This document shows, one piece after another, positions 2,330-18,637 of a stretch of 64,000 nucleotides of DNA; the first letter of the stretch is position 1, and every line of letters starts with the position of its first letter. The notes beneath the pieces are model-generated. The model did not search any database and had not been told where the DNA came from. It saw only the letters and a list, made by a program, of their open reading frames with translations. The stretch comes from a virus: the IMG/VR virus record IMGVR_UViG_3300035696_000041. The stretch is one strand, 5' to 3'. The position numbers and the translations under genes are program-made.

Positions 2330-2370
2330 AGTGCCGACATCATATCAGAATGCCAATCTGATGTCAAGCA

Positions 2371-2514
2371 CTATTCCATCTGGTCAATGACTTTCTTGAA
2401 GATGGAATGGTCGTACCCACCGTTGCACGCCTCGAATAGGATAATAAGAAGAGGAATCACTGTGATGCAACAGAACAGTAAGAGCATCCCGATTATTACG
2501 TTTTTGCTTTTCAT
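2371..2514 (-). CDS. small membrane protein (47 aa, one TM helix)
   Basis: ATG overlaps the TGA of the upstream nadE fragment (ATGA). Hydrophobic core IIGMLLLFCCITVIPLLIILF. Below the ORF-track size cutoff. Confidence 0.3.
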   Translation of the reverse strand: MKSKNVIIGMLLLFCCITVIPLLIILFEACNGGYDHSIFKKVIDQME

Positions 2515-2944
2515 ACTTTTAACGCCTGTAGTTCAGCCAACTCTTCCTCATAGCCGCCCGTGAGGATAGGAGTGCGGCACCACGTCCTCGGGTCGAGGTT
2601 GTGGTCGTCCATATGGAACGAGAGAGCATACCGCTCACGCTTCCACTGATTGCGGCTGAATAAGCGGAAGAACTTCGTGATGCTATCAATGAGCTTATTG
2701 CGGTCGTAGTCCACTTCTCGGCTGATGGCATTGAAGATTTCCACGGGCACATAGCGGTTCTTCACCACGTAGCTTTCAATCATGTGGAGCAGCCAATAGG
2801 GCATCAGGTCGTCCTCGTCGGTCTGCTTGCATTCGGCGGGCCTTAGCTCGGCTGTCGGCTGTTGCTCATTGACGTACTTCATGGCGGGGCAAGGGCCAAT
2901 GCCTTCTGGTCCTTCCTCTTGCACCCACTTGAGGTACTCACGGA
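2511..2944 (-). pseudogene. nadE: NAD+ synthetase (NadE) C-terminal fragment, separated from its 5' part by IS insertion
   Basis: TAELRP...KQTDEDDLMPY matches the conserved C-terminal region of NAD synthetases. The first 46 nt of ORF 2511..2990 derive from the IS right end. TGA stop. Confidence 0.6.
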
Positions 2945-4265
2945 TATGAACTACCCACCCGCTAAAGCAGGTGGGGTTCCCCCCAAGCAATAGTTATGAG
3001 TTTCTATTGGGTAGTTCCTACCCATTTTGTATTCCATCTTGGGAAATGCGAAATCTACGATATTCTTCGCAGCATTCACATCTCTATCGTGTTGTGTATT
3101 ACAAGTAGGACACTTCCATTCTCTATCATCAAGTGTTAGAGAATGATTTACATATCCACAATGGGAACACATTTTACTGGATGGGTCAAATCTTCCAATC
3201 TTACGGAAGTTTTTACCATACCAATCACTTTTGTATTGGAGCATATTTACAAACTTATTCCAAGCATAATCAGCGATGCGATTATTGGTTGGTGAATAGT
3301 TTATGGTTTGTATGCCCTTCACAGACAAATCCTCAATACAAATAGTATTCACTTGGTTTTCGTGAGTGAGTTTGTATGAGAGTTTATCCAAGAAATCTTT
3401 TCGTTGTCTTGCTATTTTGGAATGGAGTTTGGTAATCTGCTCTTGCTTGGAGATATAAGCAGTAGAACCTTTAGTGAGTTGCTCCAAGTCCTGTTGGTGT
3501 TTGGTGAGTTTGTCTTGCGACTTTTTCAACACCTTTGGGTTCTCAATCTTGGTTCCATCGTTTAGAGTAATGAATGTCTTTACTCCAAAGTCCATTCCTA
3601 TTGCTTTGTTCCTCTTTGGTTCGGGTTTGGCTGGGAAATCCTTATTCACTTCCACAAGGATAGAGACATAATACTTTCCATCTCTGTCTTGGGATACGAT
3701 TGCTTGCTTCAATGTTCCTTCTGCTGGTCTATCAAAGATACACTTTATTCCTTCACGGAACTTTGGTATGACTAATCGTTTCGTCTCATAGTTCAGTTTG
3801 ATATTACTATTGGTGATGGGAACTATGAAGGATTTACGGGCATCCTTCCTTGACTTGAACTTGGGAAATCCTGCTCCACTACGAAAGAATGCGGTGTATG
3901 CTCGGTCAAGGTTTAGGATGGACTGCTGTAATGATTGAGAACCTATCTCACTCAACCATTCGTATTCGTCCTTGAGAGTGGGGAGTTGAGTTGCTAAATC
4001 CTGCCAAGTGATAGTTTTCTTGGTGGATTTGTAATGGTCTATTTTGACTTGGAGGAAGTGGTTATAGACGAAACGACAATGACCAAAATGCTTGGACAAA
4101 AGAACTTGTTGTTCCTTGTTCGGCATCAAGCGATATTTGTATGCTCTGTTATACATCCTACTAATACATATAGTTGAGTTTGAGAAAACATCAAAGTATT
4201 TTCAATGGGTCGCATTCATCCCATCCGCTAAAGCAGATGGGTTTTCTGCTTCCACCAAAGATAAA
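2945..4265 (-). mobile_element. IS200/IS605-family TnpB-only insertion element, copy 1 (1321 bp)
   Basis: Ends defined by alignment with copy 2. Subterminal hairpins cccacccgctaaagcaggtggg (RE) and cccatccgctaaagcagatggg (LE). No tnpA. Lies inside nadE. Confidence 0.75.
2951..4156 (-). CDS. tnpB: TnpB RNA-guided endonuclease (OrfB, IS605/IS1341 type)
   Basis: 401 aa. RuvC-I IGMDFGVKTF, RuvC-II CIEDL, zinc finger CSHCGY...CPTCNTQHDRDVNAAKNI. About 78 percent identical to copy 2. Confidence 0.85.
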   Translation of the reverse strand: MYNRAYKYRLMPNKEQQVLLSKHFGHCRFVYNHFLQVKIDHYKSTKKTITWQDLATQLPTLKDEYEWLSEIGSQSLQQSILNLDRAYTAFFRSGAGFPKFKSRKDARKSFIVPITNSNIKLNYETKRLVIPKFREGIKCIFDRPAEGTLKQAIVSQDRDGKYYVSILVEVNKDFPAKPEPKRNKAIGMDFGVKTFITLNDGTKIENPKVLKKSQDKLTKHQQDLEQLTKGSTAYISKQEQITKLHSKIARQRKDFLDKLSYKLTHENQVNTICIEDLSVKGIQTINYSPTNNRIADYAWNKFVNMLQYKSDWYGKNFRKIGRFDPSSKMCSHCGYVNHSLTLDDREWKCPTCNTQHDRDVNAAKNIVDFAFPKMEYKMGRNYPIETHNYCLGGTPPALAGG

Positions 4266-5624
4266 CTTACCAATCTTGAGGTATTCCTTGAACACGGGGT
4301 CAACGTCAAGGACCAAGAAGGGCACCCCGAGGGCCGCAGAGACTTGATTGGCCGATTCCCGAGTCACCTTGCCACTGTTCTCTGTCGGCTGATAGGCAGT
4401 AGTGATGAGTATCCTCGTAAGAATACGAATCTGTTCCTCTTGGTCGTAACGGTCAAAGTCACTGCAACGAGCAGCACTCGCACAGTGCGGAGCGTACTTG
4501 GCGAGGAAAGGAACTGCCCCAAGTTCTCGTACTCCCAACTCGATGCCCTTGGCACACGCATAAGTCACCATTGACGAGTCGGCACCGCCAGATAGAGAGA
4601 TTACAAAGCCCTTGGTGTGGGACTTCCGCATGTAATCCATGAGAGCAAGGCCGAGGGCACGGGTGCATTCCTCATGTTTAATGTTAATGCCGCTTTCCCA
4701 CGGCTCTTCGAGAGTATTCATATTCTTCTCGGCCACACTCGGGAAAAGGAAGTCTCCCTTGACGCATCCTTCATTATATCCTTCAAGGTTCGGTTGAAAG
4801 GATGCCGTTCTGGCAACACTCGTTTTGGTCGTATGCACGTCCACGATGGCAGAAGTAATGAGAGAATCACGATAGGTAAACCGTTTGCCTTCTGCACAGA
4901 GAGACCCACCCGAGGCAATCAAAGCACCGCCATCATAGATGGCACGTCCAGATTCGTTGCCTACGAGATTTGCATACACATAGGTTGCACCGAAGGCTCG
5001 GGAGCCATCCACGACGAAGTTCCTTCGGGTCACTATCTTGCGGAAAGCGAAGTGAGAAGCTGAGGGATTGAGATAAATATCCACTCCCTTACCCGCCAGC
5101 TTGGTGCCAGGGCGTGCCGCAACCCATGCATCCTCACAGATTTCATATCCAATCTTCACCCCATCGAAAAGGAAATGAGTATCACCAATAGGATAGTCAG
5201 TTCCATTGATGGTAATGTGCTTGACTATACCCGAGGGCCACGGCTTGAAGTGGCGAGGCTCATAGTGGATGCCATCCCCCGCCAAGTGTTGCTTGCACGT
5301 AAAGCCCCACACTTGCTTGTTGGCAACAGTAGCCACGGCGTTATAGAGAGTGTTGTCAAACATCACGGGGAGTCCAATGCACACGATGATGTCCTTGGTG
5401 TGCTCGGCAATGGCGAAAAGCTTCTTCATCGCCCGTGCGGGAACGTCGGCACAGAACAAGTCGTCCTCAAGGCCGTAGCCCGTGATGGTCATTTCGGGAA
5501 GGCACAGCACCGATATGTTCTGATTCTTGGCTTCCCAAATGGTCTGAATGATATTCTTGTGGTTATTCTTCCAGTCCCGAGGGGTCTGATTCATTACCGC
5601 AGCACCAACTTTGATTAGTTTCAT
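4266..5624 (-). pseudogene. nadE: glutamine-dependent NAD+ synthetase (nitrilase domain + PP-loop synthetase domain), 3'-truncated by IS
   Basis: N-terminal CN-hydrolase domain, then SLSGGADSS PP-loop. ORF 4191..5624 ends with 25 aa (GGSRKPICFSGWDECDPLKIL) encoded by the IS left end. Confidence 0.75.
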
Positions 5625-6025
5625 TTGGCGGGTTCTTTCTTGGATGTATAGGTATAACCGAAGACGAGATAAGAAAACCCGTTGCTTCGATTGACACCAA
5701 GCAGCACATGCTGTAGGTTTACGTCGGTTGAGCCGTGGAAGTGGTTAAGCACAGCTTCATAGAAGCGGGCAGTCTTCGGAGTAAGTTTAGCTTTCTTGGC
5801 CAACTCAAACCCCTCTTGCCATTCCTTTCCAATGAGACGGTCATCGTAGTTGTAGAATAGCCCTTCCTTGGGGGCACCAAAAACCGTAATAGCATCGCCC
5901 CTGGCCTCGGGGTCCGAGTAATGCATGAAGGTGCGTATCGGCGTATCCTTATCCGTCAACGCAAAGCGGCATGGAAATTCGTCTTCCTGGTCCCAGTACC
6001 CCAAGTTGGAATGTATGCGTTTCAC
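5621..6025 (-). CDS. hypothetical protein (between nadE and pncB)
   Basis: 134-aa ORF translationally coupled to flanking NAD genes. No recognised motif. Confidence 0.45.
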   Translation of the reverse strand: MKRIHSNLGYWDQEDEFPCRFALTDKDTPIRTFMHYSDPEARGDAITVFGAPKEGLFYNYDDRLIGKEWQEGFELAKKAKLTPKTARFYEAVLNHFHGSTDVNLQHVLLGVNRSNGFSYLVFGYTYTSKKEPAK

Positions 6026-7206
6026 TTCGTTACACTTTCTACGGGAAGGCCGAGAGTAGCCTTTACAAGGTTCACGTCTTCGAGATTGCCCGTGTGTTTA
6101 CCAGGGTCATCCGAGAGTTTCACCACACCCACAGAGCCGTTGCCGAAGTCGGCAGTAGCCAGTTTGATAACCATATTCAAGGGTTTGATGCCCTCGATGT
6201 CATTGGCGAAGTGGGTTCCGATACCACCGCACGGCTGAATGAACTTGCGGAAGTACTGGTCGAGGGCAACGTAGGTATCAGTATCCAGCCCATTGCTGAA
6301 CACGAGCCGCTTCTCTTGAGAAGGAATGCGGAGCCTCTTGTAATGGTCCACCGCTCGGATGCCTTGCTCGTAGTTCTCGCCACTGTCCACCCGCACACCA
6401 TCGAAGAGGCGGGCGTCATAGGTATCAAAATCCCGATAGAACACCTTGCTCGTGAAGGTGTCGGTCAGAGCAATACCCACATTGCCATTGAAATGAGCCG
6501 CCCAATGCTTACGCCACATTCTGTCGGCCATGAGGGGGCCATAGAGGGCAGACATTGCCATGATGCACTCGTGGGCGTAGGTGCCGCTTGGAATCACGCC
6601 GTACTTCATCGCAAAGTGCGGGTTGCTTGTGCCGAGGAAACCTTCACCATCACGCATGATTTCCACAACATTTGCTTGCACTTCGTAAGAATGGCGGCGA
6701 CGGGTGCTGAAATCAATCCAGTGGCATTTGTTTTCAGAAAGCTTCGTAGTCTTCCGTTGGATGCGAAGCTTCCAATCGCCAGAGGCGGGCTGATTAGTCA
6801 TACGGAAGTACAGTTCCGAGATAATCGCCATCAGTTTGACTTCCCAATAGATGGTGCGATACCAGTAGCCCGTGATAATGATAGTGAGAGTGCCGTTGAC
6901 TTGCTTCACTTCCACTTCCCGAGGGTCCATGCGGTAGTGCCGCAGCCATTCGATGTAGGTCGGACGCTGGTACTTGATGCTGTTCCGCATCCAATCGGCC
7001 TCGGCGTCGGTCATTTCCAGTTTGGAAAGCATTTCCAGTTGCTTCTGGAGTTCAATATCAAATCCCTTGGGGAAGGGCACCTTGCTCCGAAGGATGAACT
7101 TGTACGACACCACGGCGTTCGGAAAGTCATGGAACACGACAGACCCCATGTTGAACTTGTACAGGTCGTCGTCTAGCATTGAGCGGATGATGGGTTCGTC
7201 AATCAT
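6022..7206 (-). CDS. pncB: nicotinate phosphoribosyltransferase (NAPRTase)
   Basis: SMLDDDLYKFNM N-terminus, LTDTFT and GVRVDSGE motifs typical of PncB. Start taken at the internal ATG 7206, because the upstream 40 codons are low-complexity. Confidence 0.7.
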   Translation of the reverse strand: MIDEPIIRSMLDDDLYKFNMGSVVFHDFPNAVVSYKFILRSKVPFPKGFDIELQKQLEMLSKLEMTDAEADWMRNSIKYQRPTYIEWLRHYRMDPREVEVKQVNGTLTIIITGYWYRTIYWEVKLMAIISELYFRMTNQPASGDWKLRIQRKTTKLSENKCHWIDFSTRRRHSYEVQANVVEIMRDGEGFLGTSNPHFAMKYGVIPSGTYAHECIMAMSALYGPLMADRMWRKHWAAHFNGNVGIALTDTFTSKVFYRDFDTYDARLFDGVRVDSGENYEQGIRAVDHYKRLRIPSQEKRLVFSNGLDTDTYVALDQYFRKFIQPCGGIGTHFANDIEGIKPLNMVIKLATADFGNGSVGVVKLSDDPGKHTGNLEDVNLVKATLGLPVESVTK

Positions 7207-7210
7207 ATGC

Positions 7211-7528
7211 TTATTCGAAGGTCGGGGTTTTGGTGATGGTTTCCGTAGTGCGGGTCGTGTACTGGATTTCGCCGCACTCTTGGCAAACACGTTTCCAACG
7301 AAAATCGGTCTTGGCGGCAACGTCACACGGGCCTCGCCAGTCCACTCCCATCGTGCCAGGAGGGTCGCCAGGGATGGTGTAGCCTTTGTGGTAAATGTGG
7401 TCGGGCGTCACCGCACCCCACCGATGGTTGCACGAGCGTACAGCGGAAACTAGCTTCCGCTCGGTTTCATCCAACTCCAACCGCATTGCGGCAACCCGAA
7501 GGCGAAGGTCTTGAATGTTATGGTTCAT
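7211..7528 (-). CDS. hypothetical protein with CxxC motif
   Basis: ORF 7211..7639 trimmed to ATG 7528. Contains CQECGE. Confidence 0.35.
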   Translation of the reverse strand: MNHNIQDLRLRVAAMRLELDETERKLVSAVRSCNHRWGAVTPDHIYHKGYTIPGDPPGTMGVDWRGPCDVAAKTDFRWKRVCQECGEIQYTTRTTETITKTPTFE

Positions 7529-7832
7529 TTGTATTCCAAACTGCCTTGCTAATGAGCACGTCAACCGAGTCCTTCTCGGTCTCGAATCGGCAGTCCATTT
7601 CTCGCAAGACGTAGAGAGGTTCCCCAGCCTCGGCGGCAATCTCCTTCAAGACGGGGCCATCCTTGGTAATGTCCACGTCACCAAACCACACCTTGCCTTG
7701 GCTCTTGGTGACGATGTTGGCGTTCCAGACGCACTTGTGGCCCTTGGGAGCTATCTTGCTGCCCGAGACCATTCGGCCACAGTACAAATTGCGTTTGTCG
7801 AACAGAGGGTAGAAATTTACTGGTTCACTCAT
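7518..7832 (-). CDS. hypothetical protein
   Basis: 104-aa ORF on the coding strand. Confidence 0.4.
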   Translation of the reverse strand: MSEPVNFYPLFDKRNLYCGRMVSGSKIAPKGHKCVWNANIVTKSQGKVWFGDVDITKDGPVLKEIAAEAGEPLYVLREMDCRFETEKDSVDVLISKAVWNTNEP

Positions 7833-7862
7833 AACGTCAATATACCACGTCGTTAAAAAAAG

Positions 7863-8177
7863 TCAATACTCTTCTTCGGGGGGCATCGGCGGGGTTGTTC
7901 TCGGGGCATGAAAAGCGGTCGCTTTCAAACTCTCGCCCAAGAACTGAGCCTTGTCATGGCCGAAGGGAAGGGTCGGGAAGGTCTGATACGCAGTCCATAT
8001 CCTTTTGTCCCACTCGGGAGAGAGCAGACACTTGTCGAGGAAGGTGCGGGCACGACGATGACTCCACCTTCTCTCGTGCATGTACTTCGCAATGCGGGTC
8101 TCGACTTCGCCCTTAAGGAGAAGGTCGGAGACCACCGTAAGCATATTGAACTCTTCGATGTTGAATGGCTTGCTCAT
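7863..8177 (-). CDS. hypothetical protein
   Basis: 104-aa ORF. Confidence 0.4.
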   Translation of the reverse strand: MSKPFNIEEFNMLTVVSDLLLKGEVETRIAKYMHERRWSHRRARTFLDKCLLSPEWDKRIWTAYQTFPTLPFGHDKAQFLGESLKATAFHAPRTTPPMPPEEEY

Positions 8178-9040
8178 AGAATCCTCGCACCTTTGTACTG
8201 CCAGTCATAGTAGAGGCTCCCCTCGGGGAAGAAGATAAGTTGACGGAACTCATCTTTCCCATTGGTGTCCCGAGTGAGGCAGTTGCCCATACAAACGTTC
8301 TGCCCGTTGACATCGTAAACGTCCATCCCGTGCATCAGGTGTTGCAGCAGAGTCCCGTGGTACTTGGGATAGTTCACAATCTGGGCGAGGGCCGTTTCGT
8401 CCAAAGCGTGGGTCTTCGTCCACTCGGTCACGGCGGGGCTGTCGGTCACTTCACTTGGCATGATGTTGCGGAAGGTCAGTTGCTCCACCTTGTTTTGGCG
8501 GGCAAAGCTTATCATTTCGTCAAGCTTCACCACGCTGTCAATATAGCCCTTGAGCATCATGACGCACAGCCGCACCGAGAAGCCAATCTTGTGCAGCTTG
8601 GCGATAAGTTGAGCCAAGTCGTAGTGTTTGTCGTCGGGGGTGTAAACGGAGGCGTTCTTGGCTTCGTCATAGTGGACCACCGAAAGGGCGATAGTGGTCA
8701 AGCCGAGGGTGTACCAATGGTTCAGATAAGCATCCATTTCTTCGGTATCCTCAGCCATCCGAAGACCATTGGTCTGCATTTCAATGAGCGGGAAGTCGTA
8801 CTCTTGCAGTCCCTTGAGGGTCTCGGTAATGTTGTTCGGGTAGAGGGTTGGTTCACCCTTGCCCGTCAAGAGGACCGTGGTCGTTTCGGCCTTCTGGGCG
8901 AGCCTACAGGCGATACCGAAATTTCGCCAGTTGACCTTGGGAGGGGTGCCGAAAAGGCCCGTTTGCTTGCTGATACAGAAGGGGCACGAGGCGTTACAAG
9001 CCCGTGTCCCCACGACGATTGAGAATGTTTGGAAGTGCAT
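8174..9040 (-). CDS. radical SAM domain protein
   Basis: CNASCPFC (CxxxCxxC) cluster near the N-terminus and a GKGEPTLYP glycine-rich motif. Confidence 0.7.
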   Translation of the reverse strand: MHFQTFSIVVGTRACNASCPFCISKQTGLFGTPPKVNWRNFGIACRLAQKAETTTVLLTGKGEPTLYPNNITETLKGLQEYDFPLIEMQTNGLRMAEDTEEMDAYLNHWYTLGLTTIALSVVHYDEAKNASVYTPDDKHYDLAQLIAKLHKIGFSVRLCVMMLKGYIDSVVKLDEMISFARQNKVEQLTFRNIMPSEVTDSPAVTEWTKTHALDETALAQIVNYPKYHGTLLQHLMHGMDVYDVNGQNVCMGNCLTRDTNGKDEFRQLIFFPEGSLYYDWQYKGARIL

Positions 9041-9060
9041 AGCGTTTTTCTAATGTGCTC

Positions 9061-9092
9061 ACAATATAGCACACTTCGGGCGTTTGTCAAAC
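9061..9092 (-). promoter_or_regulatory. sigma70-type promoter with extended -10 (family member a)
   Basis: Minus-strand TTGACA-16-TGTGCTATATT upstream of the radical SAM gene. Leader about 16 nt. Confidence 0.45.
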
Positions 9093-9102
9093 TGAAAAGT
9101 AG

Positions 9103-9387
9103 CTACGGGAGCCGCAGCCTGTCAGCAAGGCGGGCAGAGGGAGAGTCATTCAATAACCGCTTGCGATTGCCCCAACATCGGTTGTTTCGGAACCACGGCT
9201 TGAAGTCTTTGCGGGTCAGTTTCCGACCTAACCGCTTCTCGAAGCACCCGATGCAAATAACGTTGTCTCGCTTCTTGACGGGCATTGTGAGCAGCCATAA
9301 ACCATCGCTCACGTAGAAATCCTCTCCCATGTCCCACGGCTTGCATCGGCAATCCGTACACTTAAGGTCGTGCATAGCCTCGGGCAA
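9103..9387 (-). CDS. hypothetical Cys-rich protein
   Basis: 94 aa with CTDCRC...CIGC. Confidence 0.4.
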   Translation of the reverse strand: MPEAMHDLKCTDCRCKPWDMGEDFYVSDGLWLLTMPVKKRDNVICIGCFEKRLGRKLTRKDFKPWFRNNRCWGNRKRLLNDSPSARLADRLRLP

Positions 9388-9625
9388 GTTTGGGGTTTGT
9401 CTGCTTCACAAGCTTGTAACCCCGCTTGCTCTTGACCAGACGACGAAGGATGGTCGTTGCCGTAGCATCACACGCAGAAGCCATGAGAGCCTTTCCCGGT
9501 CCCGGGGTGATAAGGTCAATGGTGCGTGCTGCACGATACAACTGATTCATGGACCAGTTCAGCAACTCGACATTATCCATGTCTTCGTTGCCCTTAACTA
9601 TCTTTTTCTCAAGGTATGACATCAT
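9362..9625 (-). CDS. hypothetical protein
   Basis: 87-aa ORF. Confidence 0.35.
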   Translation of the reverse strand: MMSYLEKKIVKGNEDMDNVELLNWSMNQLYRAARTIDLITPGPGKALMASACDATATTILRRLVKSKRGYKLVKQTNPKLARGYARP

Positions 9626-9834
9626 ATGATTGTTATGTGTTTGCCTTTTGGCGTTACTGGATAGACCGTTATTGAATGCTCGCCTTCATCGTTGGCCCAC
9701 TCACTCTTCAAGTAGTGGACGACACCCTTACAAAAAGCATCTATGTCTTCCTCGGATGCCTTGTAGGTATCAGTAACCACTCGGGCAATGGTTTCCTTTC
9801 CTACTACTTTCACTTCAATCGAGACTTGTTTCAT
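9622..9834 (-). CDS. hypothetical protein
   Basis: 70-aa ORF with overlapping stop/start with its neighbours. Confidence 0.35.
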   Translation of the reverse strand: MKQVSIEVKVVGKETIARVVTDTYKASEEDIDAFCKGVVHYLKSEWANDEGEHSITVYPVTPKGKHITII

Positions 9835-11558
9835 TTCCGTTTCAACTGATGAAAGCTATTCCCGTTGACAAAGAATATGCCATCGGACGTAGCAAACAAT
9901 CTCATAGTAGCATCGAATGGTGGGTCTGTCAAGGTCTCGGCTTGAGCCGCCGTGGCGAACAGTTCCAACTCATTGTCGCTTGCCAAGAGGACACACAGCC
10001 CATTGTCCATCACAGTGAAGTTGATGGTGTCGTAAGCAATGTTGTCCACCTTACGCACGTCGCAAATATCGTATGCTTTGTTGAAGATGATAATGATACG
10101 GTCGAATTGACCTTTCTTCTCACCGACAACCACCACAATGTTCCTTTCGGCCTTGGCGTCCACAATACGATAGCCGTCAAGCTGAGGGATATGCTTGCTA
10201 AAACAACTGCCAAGCTTGTAGGGCAGAGTGAGGTATATCTTGCCAAGCAAGTCTTGGATGACGCACCCATTATACATCTTGGCCGAAGTGGTCGAGACGT
10301 TCTCGACTTCCTTGACTCTGTGGACCATCTTATTGCCGAAGGCAGTGAAGCTACTCTCAACCAACTTGCCTTTGCTTATGGTGTAGAAGGCATTGTTGCG
10401 AGCGAACATTTCATTGCTCTGTGCCGTGCCCACGGGGTCGGACTGAGTAAGGATTCGGAACTCAATCTTGTTGCTCAAGGATTGCTGTGCTGTCACCAGT
10501 GTACCATCCGAAGCGGATACGAGCAATATCTTCTTGGCTGCGTGTCTGCCAATCTCTTTCGTATTGGCGTATATGTGCGTCTTAGTGGCAACGTAATATA
10601 CACCCATAATGCTCGTGACTGCGAGAATATTGTCCGCATATGCGGCAATCTGTTCCACCTTCAACTTGTCAGTGCCTTGAATAGTGATAATCTGAGTAGG
10701 CACCAGCAGCGGGGCAGAGCTATCGGGCAGAGGCGGAACACCACGTTCGCCATTGAGGAACACACGTTTGAAGTAGTCCAAGTGGCGAGCGGGAATGACC
10801 TTGAAGTCATTGACGCATGGAGGTACACCCACGCCAGGGTGGAACACGCTTATGCCGTCATCCATTTGCTTTGCCTTCTCATTGGGCTTGTATTTGGCGT
10901 GCCGCCCACGATATGGATGGATATTGGTGTAGAGCCAGAAAGCCAATACAGACCACGAGAACCAGTCAGACCCAATATCGGGATTGTAATGCATGGTCCC
11001 GCTCTTGTCATAGGTGGTCACTCGGCGGTCCCTTACCGAATCCATAATCGCAGTGGCCTTGAATGAGGGAGTTGAATAACTGTCTGTATCAATGAACCAC
11101 GGGATGACAGTGCTCGGCTTCAACTCAGCCAGAATGTTAAGTTCATTCAAATCCACCACGAGACATTGAGCGGCGTGAACATCGTTGACTACCACCTGTA
11201 TCTCTTTGACGAGGCGGTTAATCATCTGGAAGTCCACGTTGTTGTCGTCCTTGAAGGTCTTGGTGAACAGCTTAAGCAACGGCTCAACATCATCCACGTA
11301 GCGAGTAGTATAGCCGAGGGGCTTCCCGTCTTTGGGGTCGAAGATAAGTTCCTTCGGTATCACTACTTGGGGGTTAGTAATGACAGACAACTCCTTCATC
11401 TTGCCGAGAGGGAGTTGCTTGTGGGCGGGGTCGTGGTACAGTTTGTACACCATACTGCCGTTAACATAGATTTCAGCTTCCCCTCCTGCCGCCAAATATT
11501 GGGATGGTTGTAGCGTAACGACATGTTTAGTCCCACCAACTATAACCTTTTTATTCAT
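9831..11558 (-). CDS. protein kinase-like protein (eukaryotic-type kinase fold) with C-terminal domain of unknown function
   Basis: AAGGEAEIY glycine loop, VYKLY lysine, LVVDLNELNIL resembling the HRDLKPENIL catalytic loop, DTDSY in DFG position. Confidence 0.4.
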   Translation of the reverse strand: MNKKVIVGGTKHVVTLQPSQYLAAGGEAEIYVNGSMVYKLYHDPAHKQLPLGKMKELSVITNPQVVIPKELIFDPKDGKPLGYTTRYVDDVEPLLKLFTKTFKDDNNVDFQMINRLVKEIQVVVNDVHAAQCLVVDLNELNILAELKPSTVIPWFIDTDSYSTPSFKATAIMDSVRDRRVTTYDKSGTMHYNPDIGSDWFSWSVLAFWLYTNIHPYRGRHAKYKPNEKAKQMDDGISVFHPGVGVPPCVNDFKVIPARHLDYFKRVFLNGERGVPPLPDSSAPLLVPTQIITIQGTDKLKVEQIAAYADNILAVTSIMGVYYVATKTHIYANTKEIGRHAAKKILLVSASDGTLVTAQQSLSNKIEFRILTQSDPVGTAQSNEMFARNNAFYTISKGKLVESSFTAFGNKMVHRVKEVENVSTTSAKMYNGCVIQDLLGKIYLTLPYKLGSCFSKHIPQLDGYRIVDAKAERNIVVVVGEKKGQFDRIIIIFNKAYDICDVRKVDNIAYDTINFTVMDNGLCVLLASDNELELFATAAQAETLTDPPFDATMRLFATSDGIFFVNGNSFHQLKRK

Positions 11559-11562
11559 ATTT

Positions 11563-12564
11563 TTATGTTATAAGCATTTCCGATAGTATTTTTGGAATGC
11601 GATTTAACTCAGTGTATTTTATTCTCATTAACTCAATACCCCGCTTGCTTGCGTATTGGGTCTTTATAGCATCTCTCCATTGGACGCCCTCCAAATCTTT
11701 TTTTGTGGAGACGTAGTTCCCGAGTTTTCTTCCACACATAAAATGTTGATTTCCGTCATACTCAACAAGTATATTCTTTTTTGGGATGTAGAAGTCGAAC
11801 TTCAACATACGACCAGTCTTGGGGTTTCGGCAATCATCAAAACTTTTCTGAGGAATATATGCAATCTTATTCTGGTCAAAGAATGCCATTATTCTTTGTT
11901 CTCCTTTGGAGAGACGACACTTGGGGCATCCACAACTATCACGGTGTAAATGTAAATGTGGAGTTTGCCAGAACTCCCCGTGTTTTTTGCAAATTATTTG
12001 TAACTTGCGGTGCTCTCCCTCGTAGATTGTTTTTGAATAATCGTAAAGGTCTCCATGAATATGTTTTGCTTCGGTTATAAACTCCGCTTGGGATTTTCGT
12101 CTGGAGGTTGCAGTTTTTACAAACCCACATTTTAGACATCCACTCCCATTGAGATGAGTATTCGGCTTTTGCTTGTACACGCCGTGCTCTGGGCATCGTA
12201 TTATAACAGGTACGTGGGCAGAGACATATGTGGATTTGGAGTAATCATATTTGTCTCCGTGGATTTCTCTTGCCTTTTTGATGAAATCATTGGTATTGGA
12301 AGTATATTTTCCGCTGCAAAAAACACATCCACAACCTCGTAAATGCGAATTCGGCTTCTGATGAAATTCGCCGTGAATAGGACATATTATTGTTACTTTT
12401 TCCTTGTTATCTTTACCATAGATAGTTTTGCCATAATCATACTTATTGCCATGAATTACAGCCGCTCGTTGTACAAATTCAGTTGTAGTAAGTTTCTCGC
12501 TCATATACATAAATAGCGAGAAAAGTCCCAAAAACGTAATATTGTTTGTCAGTATGTATTTCAC
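11563..12564 (-). CDS. homing endonuclease-like protein: three HGxKYDYSK zinc-ribbon repeats plus C-terminal DUF559/Vsr-like nuclease
   Basis: Repeats HGNKYDYGK / HGDKYDYSK / HGDLYDYSK each with CxxC pairs. C-terminal VEYDGNQH...R motif of Vsr-like endonucleases. Confidence 0.5.
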   Translation of the reverse strand: MKYILTNNITFLGLFSLFMYMSEKLTTTEFVQRAAVIHGNKYDYGKTIYGKDNKEKVTIICPIHGEFHQKPNSHLRGCGCVFCSGKYTSNTNDFIKKAREIHGDKYDYSKSTYVSAHVPVIIRCPEHGVYKQKPNTHLNGSGCLKCGFVKTATSRRKSQAEFITEAKHIHGDLYDYSKTIYEGEHRKLQIICKKHGEFWQTPHLHLHRDSCGCPKCRLSKGEQRIMAFFDQNKIAYIPQKSFDDCRNPKTGRMLKFDFYIPKKNILVEYDGNQHFMCGRKLGNYVSTKKDLEGVQWRDAIKTQYASKRGIELMRIKYTELNRIPKILSEMLIT

Positions 12565-12860
12565 TCGACAAACCTTTCATTATCCTTCGGCCAGTTCTTT
12601 AGCCTATCCTCAGCTACATGACGCCACTTCAAGCCAATCTTGGTCTTGTACCATTTGGGACCATATTGAGACAGCAGACTCCAGAAGTGGCCAGAGCCGC
12701 TACGGGCATACCACTTCTTGAACTCCCTCGCCTCTTTGACAGTCTTGAACTGAATCGTGACTTGACGTTTGGGGTCATTTATCTCTTGGGGATGTTGTTT
12801 CATATTTTGCACCATTTTTAGGGTGTCTATTGAAGAAGTCGGCCTCTTCCACAACAGCAA
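12561..12860 (-). CDS. hypothetical basic protein
   Basis: 99-aa ORF, Lys/Trp-rich. Confidence 0.3.
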   Translation of the reverse strand: MLLWKRPTSSIDTLKMVQNMKQHPQEINDPKRQVTIQFKTVKEAREFKKWYARSGSGHFWSLLSQYGPKWYKTKIGLKWRHVAEDRLKNWPKDNERFVE

Positions 12861-13098
12861 ACCCCCATACCGTTTTGGTCTCTGGATTCCATAGGTCAGA
12901 TTTATTCTCGCCGGTCAGTTCCGCCCACTTCGATTTGGCATCTTCCAGAGAAGCTGCCTCGATTTCAATGACATCATGAAGTTCCCAACATCCTTCATAT
13001 TCCATGAGACCGCCACATTCCAATCCTATTTTATATTTCATATTATTATACTTGCAATACTTATATCGTCTGAATGTGTAGTCCCATCCTTCAAGCAT
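12775..13098 (-). CDS. hypothetical protein
   Basis: 107-aa ORF. Confidence 0.3.
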   Translation of the reverse strand: MLEGWDYTFRRYKYCKYNNMKYKIGLECGGLMEYEGCWELHDVIEIEAASLEDAKSKWAELTGENKSDLWNPETKTVWGFAVVEEADFFNRHPKNGAKYETTSPRDK

Positions 13099-13841
13099 TT
13101 CCTTTTGAAGGCGGAAATCCTTCGTAATACAAACTCTCCTTCGAGGGTCTTGTAGCCCGTGAACTCTTCAATAAGGTCTGTCCACGGAATGGATTCGTTG
13201 TTGGCTTTCCGAAAGCTATTGATGCCATCCGAGACCACGGCAATGATGTCACCAGATTCAACTTGACACGTTCCCACAAAAGGCATGAATGGCTTGGATT
13301 CACTGCCTTTGTAAGACTTATCCCCAGTATTGTGGTTATTGAAATGGGTGATTTCTTTTACATAACCATCAAACTCTTTCAGATACGCTTGCTTCCGAGG
13401 CGGGTCCAATTCGTATGACAAATAATCAGGGGCACCGCTGGTTAACTGAACATGGCTGGCAGTTACCCAACCATCCTTGGCATGTCTGATAATCACCACA
13501 CCATCGCCCCACATGGCATAATTGGCCACGCCATCCTTCACCCATGCCACGAGCAAGGTAGCATCGAGGAACTGGGGAGATAAGTATGGGAATGTATCAA
13601 TCGCCCTCTGAGCACGATTGATGGTCTTCTCGCCTAAGTTGACCCATGATAGTTCTTTCATTAAGCGTATCTCGGCCTTAGCCGCCATCGCCATACAACG
13701 GGCACCGAAGTCCACGTCGGGAGAAGCGGAGCAACCATCAGATAAGATTGCATATGCAAGTCCCGCTCCCGAATATGCGAGTGCATAATCCTCGCATACA
13801 ATGTGGTCCTTACCTATGCTGAATGTACTATTTGCGTTCAT
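13038..13841 (-). CDS. PP2C-family Ser/Thr protein phosphatase
   Basis: N-terminal ILSDGCSASP (DGxGG-like) and VVSDGI near the C-terminus, as in PP2C/SpoIIE phosphatases. Confidence 0.5.
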   Translation of the reverse strand: MNANSTFSIGKDHIVCEDYALAYSGAGLAYAILSDGCSASPDVDFGARCMAMAAKAEIRLMKELSWVNLGEKTINRAQRAIDTFPYLSPQFLDATLLVAWVKDGVANYAMWGDGVVIIRHAKDGWVTASHVQLTSGAPDYLSYELDPPRKQAYLKEFDGYVKEITHFNNHNTGDKSYKGSESKPFMPFVGTCQVESGDIIAVVSDGINSFRKANNESIPWTDLIEEFTGYKTLEGEFVLRRISAFKRKCLKDGTTHSDDISIASIII

Positions 13842-14298
13842 GTCTTAATGATTGAATGATTTGGGACGTGGAGTCAAACTGCATTACATCGGGCACGATG
13901 ACGACATCCGCCTTAAATGGGTTAACTACTTCTTCTGGTTTGAAATTGGTATTCTTAAAGAGCACCGTGGGATAGAACTTGGAGCACGCCATTTCCCAAT
14001 CGGCAAGACTGCCCATGATGAATGTTATGTCAACACATTCGAGAGCATTTACAATCATTACTCGTTGGTGCTCGGGTATGACAGGGCGTCCTGGCCCCTT
14101 GACCTTGCGTACAAAGTCATCGCAATCCACGCCTACAATGAGCACGTCGCAGAGACGCTTGCACTTCTGTAGATAGGCAAGGTGGAGATTGTGAAACAAA
14201 TCAAAGCACCCCGAAGTCAGCCCCACCACAGGGTTCTTGAAGCTGTCACTCAAGTTGACTAACTCACAATCCCTCTGACTGCGAATATCTATGAGCAT
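13828..14298 (-). CDS. cytidylyltransferase-family nucleotidyltransferase (RfaE domain II / NadM-like HxGH fold)
   Basis: GCFDLFHNLHLAYL (GxFDxxHxGH) followed by DVLIVGVDCDDFVRKVKGPGRPVIPEHQR, as in HldE domain II. Confidence 0.6.
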   Translation of the reverse strand: MLIDIRSQRDCELVNLSDSFKNPVVGLTSGCFDLFHNLHLAYLQKCKRLCDVLIVGVDCDDFVRKVKGPGRPVIPEHQRVMIVNALECVDITFIMGSLADWEMACSKFYPTVLFKNTNFKPEEVVNPFKADVVIVPDVMQFDSTSQIIQSLRHERK

Positions 14299-14614
14299 AA
14301 GGTAACTCTTTGATAAGCTTAAGGCGTTGGGCCAGATACCACATGCCGCCTTGGGCCTTGGGCCTCAGTAAGCCCACGAAATTCTGTATCTCTACGAGGC
14401 ACCACACTCGGCCTTCCATCTTAAGGTGGGGTGCTTCGGGTTTAGAACAGCAATGCCATCCGGGCCGGAAAGCGAATCGTTTGGTTCTGTATGCCTTTGC
14501 GGGCAACCAAATGTTAGGGATGATGACTTGCTTCCGATTGATGAACAACGGACCAAGCGTGCCATCCTTACGCTTACGGAATAGCTTGTAGGCTATCATT
14601 TGGAGAAAGCCCAT
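14264..14614 (-). CDS. hypothetical protein
   Basis: 116-aa ORF. Confidence 0.35.
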   Translation of the reverse strand: MGFLQMIAYKLFRKRKDGTLGPLFINRKQVIIPNIWLPAKAYRTKRFAFRPGWHCCSKPEAPHLKMEGRVWCLVEIQNFVGLLRPKAQGGMWYLAQRLKLIKELPYAHRYSQSEGL

Positions 14615-14802
14615 TTGATGCCCTCGTCTTTGTTATCAAAGACTCGGACTTTGGCATAGCTATGGGAATATCCCACATGACCCTCTTTCACAAACCGCTC
14701 GGCCTCTGCCTCAGTCGTTACGGCAACGCCGAATGGGGTGTCGGAGGAACGCATGGTGCCATCGCCATCCGCCAGTAGCACATAGACGTACTTTTCTTTC
14801 AT
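14596..14802 (-). CDS. hypothetical protein
   Basis: 68-aa ORF. Confidence 0.35.
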   Translation of the reverse strand: MKEKYVYVLLADGDGTMRSSDTPFGVAVTTEAEAERFVKEGHVGYSHSYAKVRVFDNKDEGIKWAFSK

Positions 14803-14819
14803 AACTCATTAGCATGAGG

Positions 14820-14851
14820 GAGGGCGGATTGGGACCGCCGCTCCCTCACGG
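14820..14851 (-). other. GC-rich hairpin (12-bp stem, one bulge) between vWA gene and downstream ORF
   Basis: gagggagggcgg attggga ccgccgctccctc. No U-tract, so a processing/stability element is as likely as a terminator. Confidence 0.3.
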
Positions 14852-14860
14852 GGTACTGGC

Positions 14861-15634
14861 TTAGAACTTGAACTGGCTCGGATTCAGCGGAGCCGAAGCC
14901 TTGCCCGTTCCCAGAGACGAAGACGTGCTGCTAATGGACTGCGACACGAATTCGGCGAGTTTGGCGATACGCCCTGGAGTGGCGTTGCCGATGTCCACGT
15001 ACTGGTCGAAACCAGCCTCGTCCTTAACCGTCTGTAGGTAGCTACTGAGGCTTTGGACGTTGTTGGTGACGCCTACGAGAATCGTAAGCAAACTCTCAAG
15101 GTTCTCAGCCCTACGGACTGCCAAGAGAGACTTCTTGACAACAGCAGCATCAGCGGCGAGGTCGCCACTATTGATTGAGCCACAGTTGCCCTCACCATCA
15201 GTTGCCACGACCACGATGCCGTTCACCAAGAAGTCTTGGCTAGTAAGCTGTTTGCCGTAGGTGCCCGTCGCCTGAATGGCTTCGTCGCAAGCTTCAAACA
15301 ACGCCGTGCTGCCGCCGATTTGGAGAATGTTGTCATAATCCTTTTCGACGATAGTATTCAGAAGCTTGAAGCCGTGCAACTCAGTAACCACCGAGGAAAA
15401 CTGCACGACACGAAACAGGAGGTTGTCCTTGCGAGGCGACTTTTCGCACGCTTTGAAGACGGTCTTCACGCATTGCTCAAGTTGGGTCGCAAAGCCCATG
15501 ACTGAGCTACTCGTGTCAATCACGAGAGTAGCCAGAGTGTATTCCGAGGCACCAAGGTCTTTAATCTTGGCGGCAGAGAATTTGTATCCCGAACCTGCGT
15601 TCAGGGACTCAAGGTTTTTTGATAGGAGGCTCAT
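14861..15634 (-). CDS. von Willebrand factor A (vWA) domain protein (TerY-like)
   Basis: LVIDTSSSV (DxSxS MIDAS) and downstream T and D MIDAS positions (VVATDGEG). Confidence 0.65.
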   Translation of the reverse strand: MSLLSKNLESLNAGSGYKFSAAKIKDLGASEYTLATLVIDTSSSVMGFATQLEQCVKTVFKACEKSPRKDNLLFRVVQFSSVVTELHGFKLLNTIVEKDYDNILQIGGSTALFEACDEAIQATGTYGKQLTSQDFLVNGIVVVATDGEGNCGSINSGDLAADAAVVKKSLLAVRRAENLESLLTILVGVTNNVQSLSSYLQTVKDEAGFDQYVDIGNATPGRIAKLAEFVSQSISSTSSSLGTGKASAPLNPSQFKF

Positions 15635-15659
15635 ATATAACTATGCCTTTCTTTGTTGT

Positions 15660-15684
15660 TGCCCCCGCCCGTAAGCGGGGGCGA
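15660..15684 (-). other. intercistronic GC hairpin
   Basis: gcccccgcc cgtaa gcgggggc, immediately upstream of a conserved leader shared with pncA. Confidence 0.3.
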
Positions 15685-15689
15685 GTGTG

Positions 15690-16499
15690 TTACCAATCCT
15701 TCGTGTTGGTGGTCTTCATCCCCTTCTTGACCAGTTCTCTCACGAAGTCTTGGCCAAGCTTCTCGAAGCCGCCGACATTACTCGACGTGTCTTCAAGGAG
15801 GGTGAACTTGGAGACTTGGCTATCGCCAAACTCCGCAGCCACGTCACGGATGCTGTTTGCGACACAGTGCGACAGTGCCTCACCCGTGATAAGGATTTCA
15901 TCGGCCTCAGTAAGCATATCAATGAGGGCCGTATTCAGCTTGGTGGAAGGGTCGTCGTCATCGGGCACGTCGGCCTTGACAGCCGAGTAGTGCTCCGTGA
16001 ACAGGTTCGAGCCTTTGGCCACGAAGTTGACACGATTGAAGTCGCTCTCCCACTCATAGAGTGCCTTGGCAACTTCGGGAACGATGGCGTGACCCCAAGT
16101 GCCGATTAGGCAGTGCGGGGGCCAGATGCAGAGAACGTATCGCCCGTTTTTCTTGAGGGTTTCAACGTAACTCTGGGCCTTGCCTTGCCACTTCGGATTG
16201 AATGCCCGCCACACGCCGTTCTTCACGTCATCCTCAGTAATGAGAGTGAACGGATTCGGCCTATCGCCCTTGGAGTTGACCCAGAAGGCGGGGTGTGCGA
16301 TATGCACATATTGGTGCGAATCCAACGTGCAGTGGATTTGTTCGAGACGCCCCTTGTTCTTGGAAACGAACTTCCCAAGTCGGGCCATGTCTTGGTCTGC
16401 CCCGGCGACTACCAAAGCACCCTTCTCCCCGCCCGGGCCGAGGGGGATACAGAAGTCGTTCTGTGGGTCAATGGTTATTAGGTGTACTTTTCGGCTCAT
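15690..16499 (-). CDS. pncA: nicotinamidase / isochorismatase-family cysteine hydrolase
   Basis: IDPQNDF motif at the N-terminus and catalytic ITGEALSHCV. Confidence 0.65.
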   Translation of the reverse strand: MSRKVHLITIDPQNDFCIPLGPGGEKGALVVAGADQDMARLGKFVSKNKGRLEQIHCTLDSHQYVHIAHPAFWVNSKGDRPNPFTLITEDDVKNGVWRAFNPKWQGKAQSYVETLKKNGRYVLCIWPPHCLIGTWGHAIVPEVAKALYEWESDFNRVNFVAKGSNLFTEHYSAVKADVPDDDDPSTKLNTALIDMLTEADEILITGEALSHCVANSIRDVAAEFGDSQVSKFTLLEDTSSNVGGFEKLGQDFVRELVKKGMKTTNTKDW

Positions 16500-16553
16500 A
16501 TAACTATGCCTTTCGTTGTTGTTTCTTAATCCCCGACACGGGACTAAAGTGTG

Positions 16554-17477
16554 TTATTTCAAGCGTAATATCTCTCCTTTGAAGTAGTCGTTCAACATTG
16601 AGAGCAGAGGACGGTGCATAGGCATGATGTCCCCTTCGCTTATCTCACCAAATTGTGCCCACTTGACGAACTTGATGTCGTCTCGGGCCTTCGGCTCCCC
16701 GCCGATGTACCGCATTACGTATAGGAACGTGAGAATCTTGTCTTGCTCACGGCGATACCGCCAGTCGTCCACGATGGAGCTACCGACATAGCCAACCAAC
16801 TCAAGGTCAAGGCTCGTCTCTTCCTTGCCTTCACGGCGGGCCGCATCCTCGGCACTCTTGTCTTTGGCGGGGTCAGTGAACCCACCAACAAGCTGCCAGA
16901 GGTCCGCATTGGGCTTCTGAGCCAGCAAGAGCCGCTTCTTGTCGTAGTCCACGATACCAAGGTCCACCGTCGCTTTGAACGAGGGATATTGATTCTGAAC
17001 GGCGAATACGACTCCTTCACGGAAGTCTTGCGTGTTCTTGCCTTTGATGCCTATGCGGCGGCGAACTTCACTTGCCGATATGTACTTGCTCGGCACGAGT
17101 TCTACGGTGGGGTAATGGCCCATGTAGCCATTGATGAAGCTGTCTCGACTACCGTACAGGACCACACGAAGATTGGGTCCAACGGTCTTGGCGATTTGTT
17201 TATCGAGGTTCTTGCTCCAGATTTCGTTGTGACCAACGTCGTCAATGTAGAGCACTTCGATGTCTTGATAAGCTTCCTCAATCATCGCCTTGCGGATAGC
17301 AAAGTCGAAAGGATTGTTGAATGTGCATTTCAGCGGAGAGAGTCCGAGGAATATAAGGACTCGGGGGTGAGCGGCACGTACTGTGTCCAGTATCTCTTTG
17401 TGCCCCTCATGGAGGAACGGCGATTGAAATCTCGCCACGATTACGCCAACTTCGGCGTCATTATCCGTCGTCTTCAT
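16554..17477 (-). CDS. bifunctional NMN/NaMN adenylyltransferase (NadM type) - Nudix ADP-ribose pyrophosphatase
   Basis: VIVARFQSPFLHEGH (NadM GRFQPFHxGH) then Nudix box GGFTDP...REGKEETS. Start trimmed to ATG 17477. Confidence 0.7.
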   Translation of the reverse strand: MKTTDNDAEVGVIVARFQSPFLHEGHKEILDTVRAAHPRVLIFLGLSPLKCTFNNPFDFAIRKAMIEEAYQDIEVLYIDDVGHNEIWSKNLDKQIAKTVGPNLRVVLYGSRDSFINGYMGHYPTVELVPSKYISASEVRRRIGIKGKNTQDFREGVVFAVQNQYPSFKATVDLGIVDYDKKRLLLAQKPNADLWQLVGGFTDPAKDKSAEDAARREGKEETSLDLELVGYVGSSIVDDWRYRREQDKILTFLYVMRYIGGEPKARDDIKFVKWAQFGEISEGDIMPMHRPLLSMLNDYFKGEILRLK

Positions 17478-17617
17478 AGCACCTAATCTGTATCTCGGTT
17501 TTGCTAACACAACGTAGCTTCATCAAAATCTCGGCCACGCTGACAACAATACATATTGTTGATTCTGCCAAAAGTGTAACAGAAACACTAAGTCATGTCA
17601 AGTTTTCTTTTCGGCAG

Positions 17618-18110: not shown

Positions 18111-18113
18111 AGG

Positions 18114-18302: not shown

Positions 18303-18306
18303 ATTG

Positions 18307-18627: not shown

Positions 18628-18637
18628 AATTTTCAAC

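Follow-up and report, generated by a model that had tools for sequence, protein, structure and literature searches.

We analysed a stretch of viral DNA of 64,000 nucleotides from the IMG/VR record IMGVR_UViG_3300035696_000041, referred to as the window throughout, and found that open reading frames (ORFs) of four NAD-salvage families share a strand of this phage genome fragment and span no more than 15 kb. The genes are those of a PncA-like putative nicotinamidase, the nicotinate phosphoribosyltransferase PncB, a NadM-type nucleotidyltransferase fused to a Nudix hydrolase (NadM-Nudix), and the glutamine-dependent NAD synthetase NadE (Table 1). In this genome, nadE is a pseudogene, disrupted by an insertion sequence (IS) and internally deleted. 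Collectively, we consider that the locus probably represents an accessory set for deamidated (PncA plus Preiss-Handler) NAD+ salvage in a jumbo-phage lineage, of which the last step has been lost here.

Phage origin of the locus

The source of the DNA is a jumbo/huge bacteriophage, as indicated by hallmark genes and by its phage relatives. A PHROG search matched an RIIA-like gene to phrog_612 at 2e-86 and the adjoining RIIB-like gene at 2e-47, and nearly all genes of positions 1..20000 are on the minus strand. In GenBank, the phage proteins closest to PncB, PncA-like and NadM-Nudix belong to 'uncultured phage' genomes of 460-595 kb (LR756511, LR756500 and LR745208), and homologues of the PncA-like protein were found on 63 IMG/VR viral contigs, with sizes up to 519 kb. 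No structural genes were found within the 64-kb window. When positions 4000-17600 were compared with GenBank phages by megablast, zero matches were obtained and no near-identical phage was found, and a TnpB scan across bacterial genomes yielded no confirmed relative pointing to the host.

Identification of PncB, PncA-like and NadM-Nudix

The PncB product contains both the N-terminal and the catalytic domains of its family (Pfam NAPRTase_N, 1.9e-30, and NAPRTase, 3.3e-41), and it scored above the curated NCBIfam equivalog cut-offs TIGR01514 (346.9, cut-off 269.55) and NF003704 (404, cut-off 379). The motifs LTDTFT and GVRVDSGE were located in this ORF. The protein has 386 aa in relatives, and an exact database look-up of the 434-aa mechanical ORF gave no match, probably because the called start differs. 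The window PncB and its counterpart on the related scaffold L001 were just 59% identical, while the neighbouring genes were 76-94% identical, and this low value amid closer neighbours suggests allele replacement or mosaicism in the region.

The motifs IDPQNDF and GEALSHC were both found in the 269-aa PncA-like ORF. The catalytic Asp-Lys-Cys triad is intact, with D11 in IDPQNDF, K162 in AKG and C212 in GEALSHC; it is invariant in 24 homologues and aligns with the catalytic positions of yeast Pnc1 and Mycobacterium tuberculosis PncA, which were also the best PDB sequence matches. Equally invariant in the 24 homologues are D60 and H62 (in DSHQ) and H129 (in WPPHC), which we take, from the established Pnc1 and PncA structures, to be the metal-binding residues. 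The WPxHC motif sets nicotinamidases apart from other isochorismatase-like hydrolases. An AlphaFold (AF2) model built on the homologue alignment had a predicted local distance difference test (pLDDT) value of 89, and when it was compared with the PDB by Foldseek, ranks 1-19 were taken by nicotinamidases without exception (2.6e-13 to 3e-8), and the other isochorismatase-like hydrolases ranked lower. The triad, the metal site and the modelled fold point to a divergent putative nicotinamidase.

For NadM-Nudix, both Pfam domains were over their cut-offs (NUDIX, 54.1, cut-off 21.1; CTP_transf_like, 22.5). The best PDB matches, spanning both domains, were 2qjo (1e-8), 2qjt and 1f9a, and the nearest solved proteins are the Synechocystis and Francisella bifunctional nicotinamide mononucleotide (NMN) adenylyltransferase (NMNAT)/Nudix enzymes and the archaeal NMNAT MJ0541. 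Several motifs are kept among relatives: ARFQSPFLHEGH and ISASEVRRR in the nucleotidyltransferase, and RREGKEET, the REx2EE part of the Nudix box. The NadM domain thus carries the HIGH-type (H/T)xGH and ISxTxxR motifs, and the C-terminal Nudix domain has its REx2EE box, with the spacing of the full Nudix box slightly non-canonical. Judged by these matches, the protein appears to be a divergent yet recognisable member of its family.

Disruption of nadE by an insertion sequence

The N fragment of NadE contains the CN-hydrolase glutaminase domain (Pfam CN_hydrolase, 64.3), which aligns with residues 5-281 of 3ilv, and the start of the synthetase domain, where the NAD_synthase match covers 37 residues only (the first 37 profile positions). 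Its ORF, 5624..4191, runs on into the IS and stops at 4191, giving a product of 477 aa. This fragment aligns to residues 1-459 of an intact 671-aa homologue, with 81% identity, and to residues 5-413 of 3ilv. The C fragment is 93% identical to the C terminus of L001 NadE and aligns with 3ilv residues 490-624. When the two pieces were joined, the best PDB match was 3ilv, the glutamine-dependent NAD synthetase of Cytophaga hutchinsonii (1e-130), and the alignment skipped from residue 413 to 490 at the junction. Full-length homologues in the database have ~660-690 aa and are up to 81% identical.

The alignment of the DNA with L001 placed the breakpoints: homology extends up to 4260 (native TTTATC, 4265..4260), the IS occupies 4259..2945, and homology resumes from ~2947-2945. 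Compared with L001, 211 bp of intact nadE are missing, and this stretch encodes KGTSLSFKDDDLTLQNLQARVRAPSIWMIANMEGKLLLTTSNMSEAAVGYATMDGDTAGCVSPIAGLPKVY. Residues ~460-524 of the 671-aa homologue, i.e., ~65-70 codons of the synthetase core, are therefore deleted. The intact homologue P0001 reads KEYLKIGKFI-KGTSLSF...QNLQARVR...TTSNMSEAAVGYATMDGD...PKVY-IREYLKW, whereas the window passes from KFI through the IS to IREYLKW. The ATP-pyrophosphatase synthetase domain is incomplete: SGGADSS is kept, and the core set of SGGxDS with QNxQAR / TxNxSE / GYxTxxGD is not found in full. In agreement, the TIGR00552 nadE domain model scored 89.6 with an intact relative and 20.7 with the window fragment (cut-off 63.65). 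The fragments are separated by 1315 bp of IS, and they would be out of frame even upon precise excision. A tblastn search for the missing segment elsewhere in the window gave no significant match.

Two ways in which the gene might still be whole were considered and rejected. Rescue by an intron or IStron found no support, since Rfam was empty at gathering thresholds over the whole window and the ~65-70 codons are absent regardless. An assembly artefact at the left junction is contradicted by the independent ENA contig L005, 100% identical over 2309 bp and encoding the same 477-aa product, which is also recorded on a 65,485-bp JGI contig; the right nadE/IS junction is backed by the window contig only. 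Since NadE is split, deleted and out of frame, the pathway is incomplete in this genome. The sequence-only reading had described a complete route from PncA through PncB and NadM/Nudix to NadE, and this description fails at the pseudogene. Its underlying assignment of ORFs to four enzymes fared better: motifs, coordinates and families were recovered for all four, with NadE not intact because of the IS, the deletion and the frame. Profile searches, which it had named as the check on these families, placed PncB, NadM-Nudix (Pfam) and the CN_hydrolase domain of NadE, while PncA-like stayed below the cut-off and NAD_synthase was matched over those 37 residues only.

The IS inside nadE is a TnpB-only element of the IS200/IS605 family, and its TnpB contains the Pfam domains HTH_OrfB_IS605, OrfB_IS605 and Cas12f1-like_TNB (zinc-ribbon). 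A second TnpB-only IS lies in the window, and the two copies share ~79% DNA identity and 80% protein identity; their ends were set by aligning both copies and intact NadE. Both stand directly 3' of TTTATC, which in nadE is native sequence, and both have subterminal hairpins (CCCATC...GATGGG and CCCACC...GGTGGG), located at the left and right ends in the nadE copy. The domains, the subterminal hairpins, the short conserved TTTATC on the 5' side and the lack of a target duplication are shared with TnpB-only IS200/IS605 (IS1341-like) elements. Unlike a simple peel-and-paste insertion, the nadE copy comes with the target deletion of ~211 bp. This deletion may have arisen by two insertions and a subsequent recombination, or when a TnpB cut was repaired, or it may have been present in the allele before the IS entered. 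The right breakpoint corresponds to TATATC in the intact gene, and it is beside the right end that the ~211 bp are gone. The second IS divides a DUF4326 gene by simple insertion; the two parts of the gene remain in line, with no obvious deletion. Both IS copies of the window interrupt genes.

Gene order and gene content in related phages

Four ENA metagenome scaffolds (L001-L004) share their gene order with the window, and in them every gene is intact: NadM-Nudix, PncA-like, a von Willebrand factor A (VWA) protein, a small nucleotidyltransferase, a PP2C-type phosphatase, a 574-aa protein, small ORFs, a GIY-YIG endonuclease, PncB, an 88-aa ORF and NadE (671 aa). A phosphoribosyl pyrophosphate (PRPP) synthetase gene, prs, is located 5.4 kb beyond NadE in these scaffolds. 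Examples of relatives with the intact cassette are IMGVR_UViG_3300038424_000251 and ENA GROS21 scaffold_162. The relatives' Prs is canonical, scoring 341 with NF002320 (cut-off 297) and matching cellular PRPS structures at ~1e-67. By synteny, prs would fall just past the start of the window, outside it. All five genes were also found, in a rearranged order within 20 kb, on the 365-kb IMG/VR contig L017, which represents in full one phage genome also sampled as L010 and L019, and in some relatives PncB and Prs adjoin.

Other arrangements were observed as well. A 372-kb NCBI contig (L069) has intact NadE, NadM-Nudix and PncA-like in the 22 kb fetched, and PncB and Prs were not seen in those 22 kb. 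In the 435-kb contig L075, NadE lies inside the block formed by PncA-like, VWA, PP2C and the propeller protein (575 aa in the window), between the PP2C and 575-aa genes. In almost all of the 63 IMG/VR loci, the genes of VWA, PP2C and the 575-aa protein come after PncA-like, even at 36-55% identity, and PncB, NadM-Nudix, NadE and Prs occur within +/-10 kb of PncA-like mainly in closer relatives. The sequence-only reading had suggested a survey of related phages for the same gene set, and the set was found in close relatives, in which all four genes are intact and syntenic with Prs. The content varies among relatives, and no GenBank phage record matched all four NAD queries, LR756500 and LR756511 being without a NadE match.

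Proposed pathway and alternative readings

From these identities we infer the enzyme activities, the use of nicotinate mononucleotide (NaMN) rather than NMN, the sequence of the final two reactions and the biological purpose as follows. In the intact relatives, the PncA-like nicotinamidase would convert nicotinamide to nicotinate, and PncB would join nicotinate and PRPP to give NaMN. The NadM domain would then generate nicotinate adenine dinucleotide (NaAD) from NaMN, and the glutamine-dependent NadE would convert NaAD to NAD+. The fused Nudix domain probably cleaves ADP-ribose to AMP and ribose-5-phosphate, and the relatives' Prs could convert ribose-5-phosphate to PRPP, the substrate of PncB. 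The phage of the window would reach NaAD at most, and host NadE would be needed to finish. Bacteria commonly defend themselves against phages by depleting NAD+. The module would most likely preserve NAD+ during infection, either against a drain by host NADases or against consumption by enzymes of the phage itself, for example the poly(ADP-ribose) polymerase (PARP)-like protein encoded in the window.

Several observations weigh against this reading, both for single enzymes and for the set as a whole. PncA-like remained under the profile cut-offs, with 20.9 against 27 for Pfam Isochorismatase and 27 against 174 for NCBIfam NF008623. NadM-Nudix was far under every NCBIfam equivalog cut-off (the best was NF003786, 44.8 against 397), and its HxGH motif, ARFQSPFLHEGH, has a two-residue insertion when compared with GRFQPFHxGH. 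Among the characterised NadM-Nudix enzymes of bacteria, NMN is the better-known substrate, and the use of NaMN here is an assumption. As to the set, the NAD gene content of the clade is variable and fluid. The contigs L076 and L077, which come from one phage, keep the synthetase half of NadE only (residues 335-668; gene at 10001..10978), with no glutaminase domain and no PncB nearby, and the IS-killed NadE described here shows that the last step is dispensable. Many huge phages keep the block of PncA-like, VWA, PP2C and propeller genes, and PncB, NadE and NadM-Nudix were not found within the +/-10 kb examined, so that PncA-like may have a role outside the NAD pathway, tied to this module. The linkage within the module could alternatively be mere inherited gene order.

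A more far-reaching proposal would make PncA-like, PncB, NadM-Nudix, NadE and Prs of the relatives a fourth, deamidated NAD+ reconstitution pathway. NAD+ would be rebuilt from the two products of NADases, with nicotinamide entering through nicotinate and ADP-ribose being turned into PRPP by Nudix and Prs, and the pathway would protect jumbo phages against Thoeris, SIR2 or DSR-type defences, with PncA-like regulated by the VWA-PP2C-propeller proteins. We regard this as conceivable and somewhat unlikely, and hold it tentatively.

Turning to the alternatives to the salvage set, the conservation among the 63 loci allows PncA-like to be chiefly a part of the VWA-PP2C-propeller module with another role, either as a regulated amidase or in the control of nicotinamide, and PncB, NadE and NadM-Nudix to be independent auxiliary metabolic genes of the same variable region. 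The three module genes trail PncA-like in nearly all of these loci, down to 36% identity, and the other NAD genes are found within +/-10 kb chiefly where the relationship is closer, as this alternative would have it. Nonetheless, the nicotinamidase-specific metal-site and catalytic residues are invariant, in the closer clade PncA-like has NadM-Nudix immediately upstream, and a shared order among related phages may stem from common descent, the span examined being +/-10 kb. On balance, we judge this alternative unlikely, and the salvage set is preferred to it.

The order of the last two steps could also be reversed in the intact relatives, with NadE making NMN from NaMN and the NadM domain then producing NAD+, and a route of this Francisella type via NMN reportedly exists (Sorci et al. 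2009). The architecture of NadM-Nudix, which matches 2qjt, the Francisella enzyme, and 2qjo, agrees with this order, and so does the usual preference of bacterial NadM-Nudix enzymes for NMN. The form of NadE speaks against it: the NMN synthetase of Francisella is an NH3-dependent NadE with a single domain, and the protein studied here is a two-domain, glutamine-dependent one, closest to 3ilv and human NADSYN1. We find this order still less likely than a separate role of PncA-like, and the formation of NaAD before NAD+ is retained in the proposed salvage set.

That the phage of the window is itself self-sufficient for a four-step route from nicotinamide to NAD+, as a new counter-defence against NADase systems, is scarcely credible: all four families are detectable, and a macro domain and a PARP are also encoded in the window, but NadE is split by the IS, has ~65-70 core codons gone and is out of frame, and with Rfam neither a group I intron nor any other RNA family able to splice the element out was found. 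Equally remote is a chemistry like that of the known phage pathway NARP1 with nicotinate as the base, in which a Prs-like enzyme pyrophosphorylates ADP-ribose and a PncB-like enzyme joins the product to nicotinate, giving NaAD; NARP1 does use the PRPS-like Adps and the phosphoribosyltransferase-like Namat, and PncB stands beside Prs in some relatives, but Prs passes the canonical models (NF002320, 341 over 297; PRPS structures, 1e-67), PncB passes a PncB-specific equivalog, and the NadM domain would be superfluous. The candidacies of Prs as Adps and of PncB as a Namat-like enzyme were rejected, as both score as canonical enzymes.

Comparison with known NAD+ pathways

A phage-borne deamidated route has already been published at the annotation level. 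A study of 2024 (Microbiome, PMC11662467) reported 174 'NAD-jumbo phages' in which either the salvage or the Preiss-Handler pathway is encoded in full; it describes pncB-nadD-nadE clusters in jumbo phages and mentions phage pncA, at the level of annotation only, and proposes that they supply NAD+ for the needs of the phage. The locus resembles those clusters in that jumbo-phage genes are grouped and NAD+ would be reached via nicotinate, NaMN and NaAD. It differs from them in having NadM-Nudix in place of NadD, a divergent PncA upstream, Prs nearby in relatives and a nadE destroyed by an IS. What sets the locus apart is the enzyme set, together with a final step that was lost naturally. The sequence-only reading had presented a deamidated route carried by a phage as a distinct variant, and this novelty is diminished by the published Preiss-Handler sets and pncA (PMC11662467); it is upheld in so far as the experimentally shown pathways NARP1-3 are not deamidated.

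NARP1 consists of Adps and Namat and NARP2 of Nampt and Nmnat, and the terms PncA, PncB and NadE are absent from the preprint that describes them. NARP3 combines PnuC with a NadR-like protein (Sci Adv 2026, PMC13464706), and its text contains no deamidated phage route. Comparative surveys of 2021 and 2022 described phages with NadV plus NadM/NadR only. Like NARP2 and the NadV-NatV pair of Vibrio phage KVP40 (Nampt plus NMNAT-Nudix), the proposed pathway would start from nicotinamide, has a NadM-type/Nudix fusion and follows the logic of recycling NADase products. NARP2, however, is a two-step amidated route through NMN, whereas the route here would run via nicotinate and require NadE. No Nampt was found among the window ORFs of at least 400 aa, nor was there any Nampt-sized ORF of the NAPRTase family besides PncB. 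With NARP1 the locus shares that NAD+ would be rebuilt from NADase products by phage-encoded enzymes of PRPS fold and phosphoribosyltransferase fold; unlike NARP1, the relatives have a Prs with the scores of a canonical PRPP synthetase and a PncB with those of a canonical NAPRTase, a comparison made with models other than those of Adps and Namat. NARP3 is likewise a phage pathway of NAD+ restoration, but it imports nicotinamide riboside and uses NadR, for which the only window candidate, an AAA_28 ORF, was sub-threshold and had no NadR support. The gene pairs of NARP1-3 were thus not encountered in the window: NadR lacked support and PnuC was not seen, with a part of the small ORFs scanned.

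The salvage route of bacteria such as E. coli and Acinetobacter, PncA-PncB-NadD-NadE, has the same chemistry and families for three of the four steps. The set described here differs from it in being phage-borne, in using NadM-Nudix for NadD, in having a divergent PncA with an insertion of ~60 aa, and in the nadE pseudogene. All of NARP1-3 bypass the deamidated branch, and a lineage with PncA, PncB, NadM-Nudix, NadE and Prs would be evidence that the route through nicotinate, which is longer and costly in ATP, can also be taken up by phages. This route is independent of Nampt and NMN, and the lineage supplies divergent enzymes for it. The IS-killed nadE is a natural experiment, which indicates that the last step can fall to the host and that the module is an accessory one whose content is changing. 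In huge phages, the tight linkage of PncA-like to VWA, PP2C and propeller, which is deeply conserved, may point to a regulated removal of nicotinamide.

Neighbouring and other genes of the window

The three genes that accompany PncA-like, and the remaining features, are listed in Table 1. The 575-aa protein had no sequence match in Pfam, PHROG or PDB. In its AF2 model, residues 300-575 reached a pLDDT of ~90, and Foldseek related them to WD40/BamB propellers (~1e-7); support for the fold is confined to this C-terminal propeller, and the N-terminal half is without a fold assignment. It was also considered as a protein kinase and rejected, since hhalign against the Ser/Thr kinase of the window gave a probability of 0.7% and the PDB profile search was empty. 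PADLOC returned nothing informative for PncA-like, VWA, PP2C and the 575-aa protein.

The small nucleotidyltransferase between VWA and PP2C scored 52 with TIGR00125 (cut-off 27.7) and 92.3 with TIGR02199 (below 181.5). It was rejected as a second NMNAT or NadD, being RfaE-II-like, with ethanolamine-phosphate and glycerol-3-phosphate cytidylyltransferases as its best PDB matches. The 333-aa DUF723 ORF, in a region of lower GC, has no counterpart between the PP2C and 574-aa genes of L001-L004, and it is likely a mobile, homing-endonuclease-like insertion. The radical SAM protein gave weak MoaA-like and prokaryotic-viperin-like matches, and relatives have a GIY-YIG endonuclease gene at the same position in the L001 order.

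Table 1. Features predicted in the window, ordered by position
Feature	Coordinates	Strand	Remarks
NadE C fragment	2945..2511	-	~residues 525-670 of intact protein; inside short ORF 2990..2511
TnpB-only IS200/IS605-family element (IS-A), inside nadE	4259..2945	-	tnpB 4156..2951, 401 aa
NadE N fragment	5624..4260	-	CN-hydrolase glutaminase domain and start of synthetase domain, including SGGADSS
PncB, nicotinate phosphoribosyltransferase	7206..6022	-	394 aa from ATG 7206; mechanical ORF from GTG 7326 (434 aa)
Radical SAM protein	9040..8174	-	Pfam Radical_SAM 42.9
575-aa protein, C-terminal beta-propeller	11558..9831	-	AF2 model and Foldseek
333-aa zinc-ribbon/DUF723 ORF	12564..11563	-	Pfam DUF4379 27.7 (treble-clef zinc finger), DUF723 24
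PP2C-type phosphatase	13841..13038	-	Pfam PP2C_2 48.1
Small HIGH-superfamily nucleotidyltransferase, RfaE-II/cytidylyltransferase type	14298..13828	-	NCBIfam, PDB
VWA protein	15634..14861	-	Intact metal-ion-dependent adhesion site (MIDAS); Pfam VWA 31.1; DTSSS, GGST, TDG motifs
PncA-like divergent putative nicotinamidase	16499..15690	-	269 aa; triad, metal site, AF2/Foldseek
NadM-type nucleotidyltransferase and Nudix hydrolase fusion	17477..16554	-	307 aa from ATG 17477; ORF reaches GTG 17510
RIIB-like gene	21125..19506	-	C-terminal phosphopantetheine-binding (acyl carrier protein) domain
RIIA-like gene	23974..21584	-	
Macro-domain protein	28182..27574	-	29.6 bits, cut-off 22
AAA_28 ORF	30368..29691	-	23.8, under 27 cut-off
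Thymidylate synthase	39373..38066	-	435 aa
Dihydrofolate reductase (DHFR)	40234..39734	-	
Thg1-like tRNA-His guanylyltransferase	42902..42114	-	
Ser/Thr protein kinase fused to N-terminal DnaJ domain	47182..45986	-	
DUF4326 gene, C part	54283..~54120	-	Motif LKGKRLGCWC
Second TnpB-only IS, inside DUF4326 gene	54284..55597	+	tnpB 54389..55591
DUF4326 gene, N part	56020..55598	-	
DUF2828/DUF7788 protein	57621..56086	-	phrog_850 'RNA-binding protein'
PARP catalytic domain and weak WGR domain	62592..63884	+	

The sequence-only reading had seen an NAD/ADP-ribose theme in further genes of the window. The macro domain and the PARP were confirmed, and the third member, the AAA_28 ORF taken as a NadR-like ribosylnicotinamide kinase, was rejected, its Pfam score being sub-threshold, with no support from NCBIfam or PDB. 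The macro-domain protein could reverse a DNA ADP-ribosylation of the DarT type. Its best match in the defence library was the DarG macro domain, with 49 bits. Lastly, the thymidylate synthase matched a 266-position profile over residues 78-435, and it therefore has an N-terminal extension and ~90 extra internal residues.

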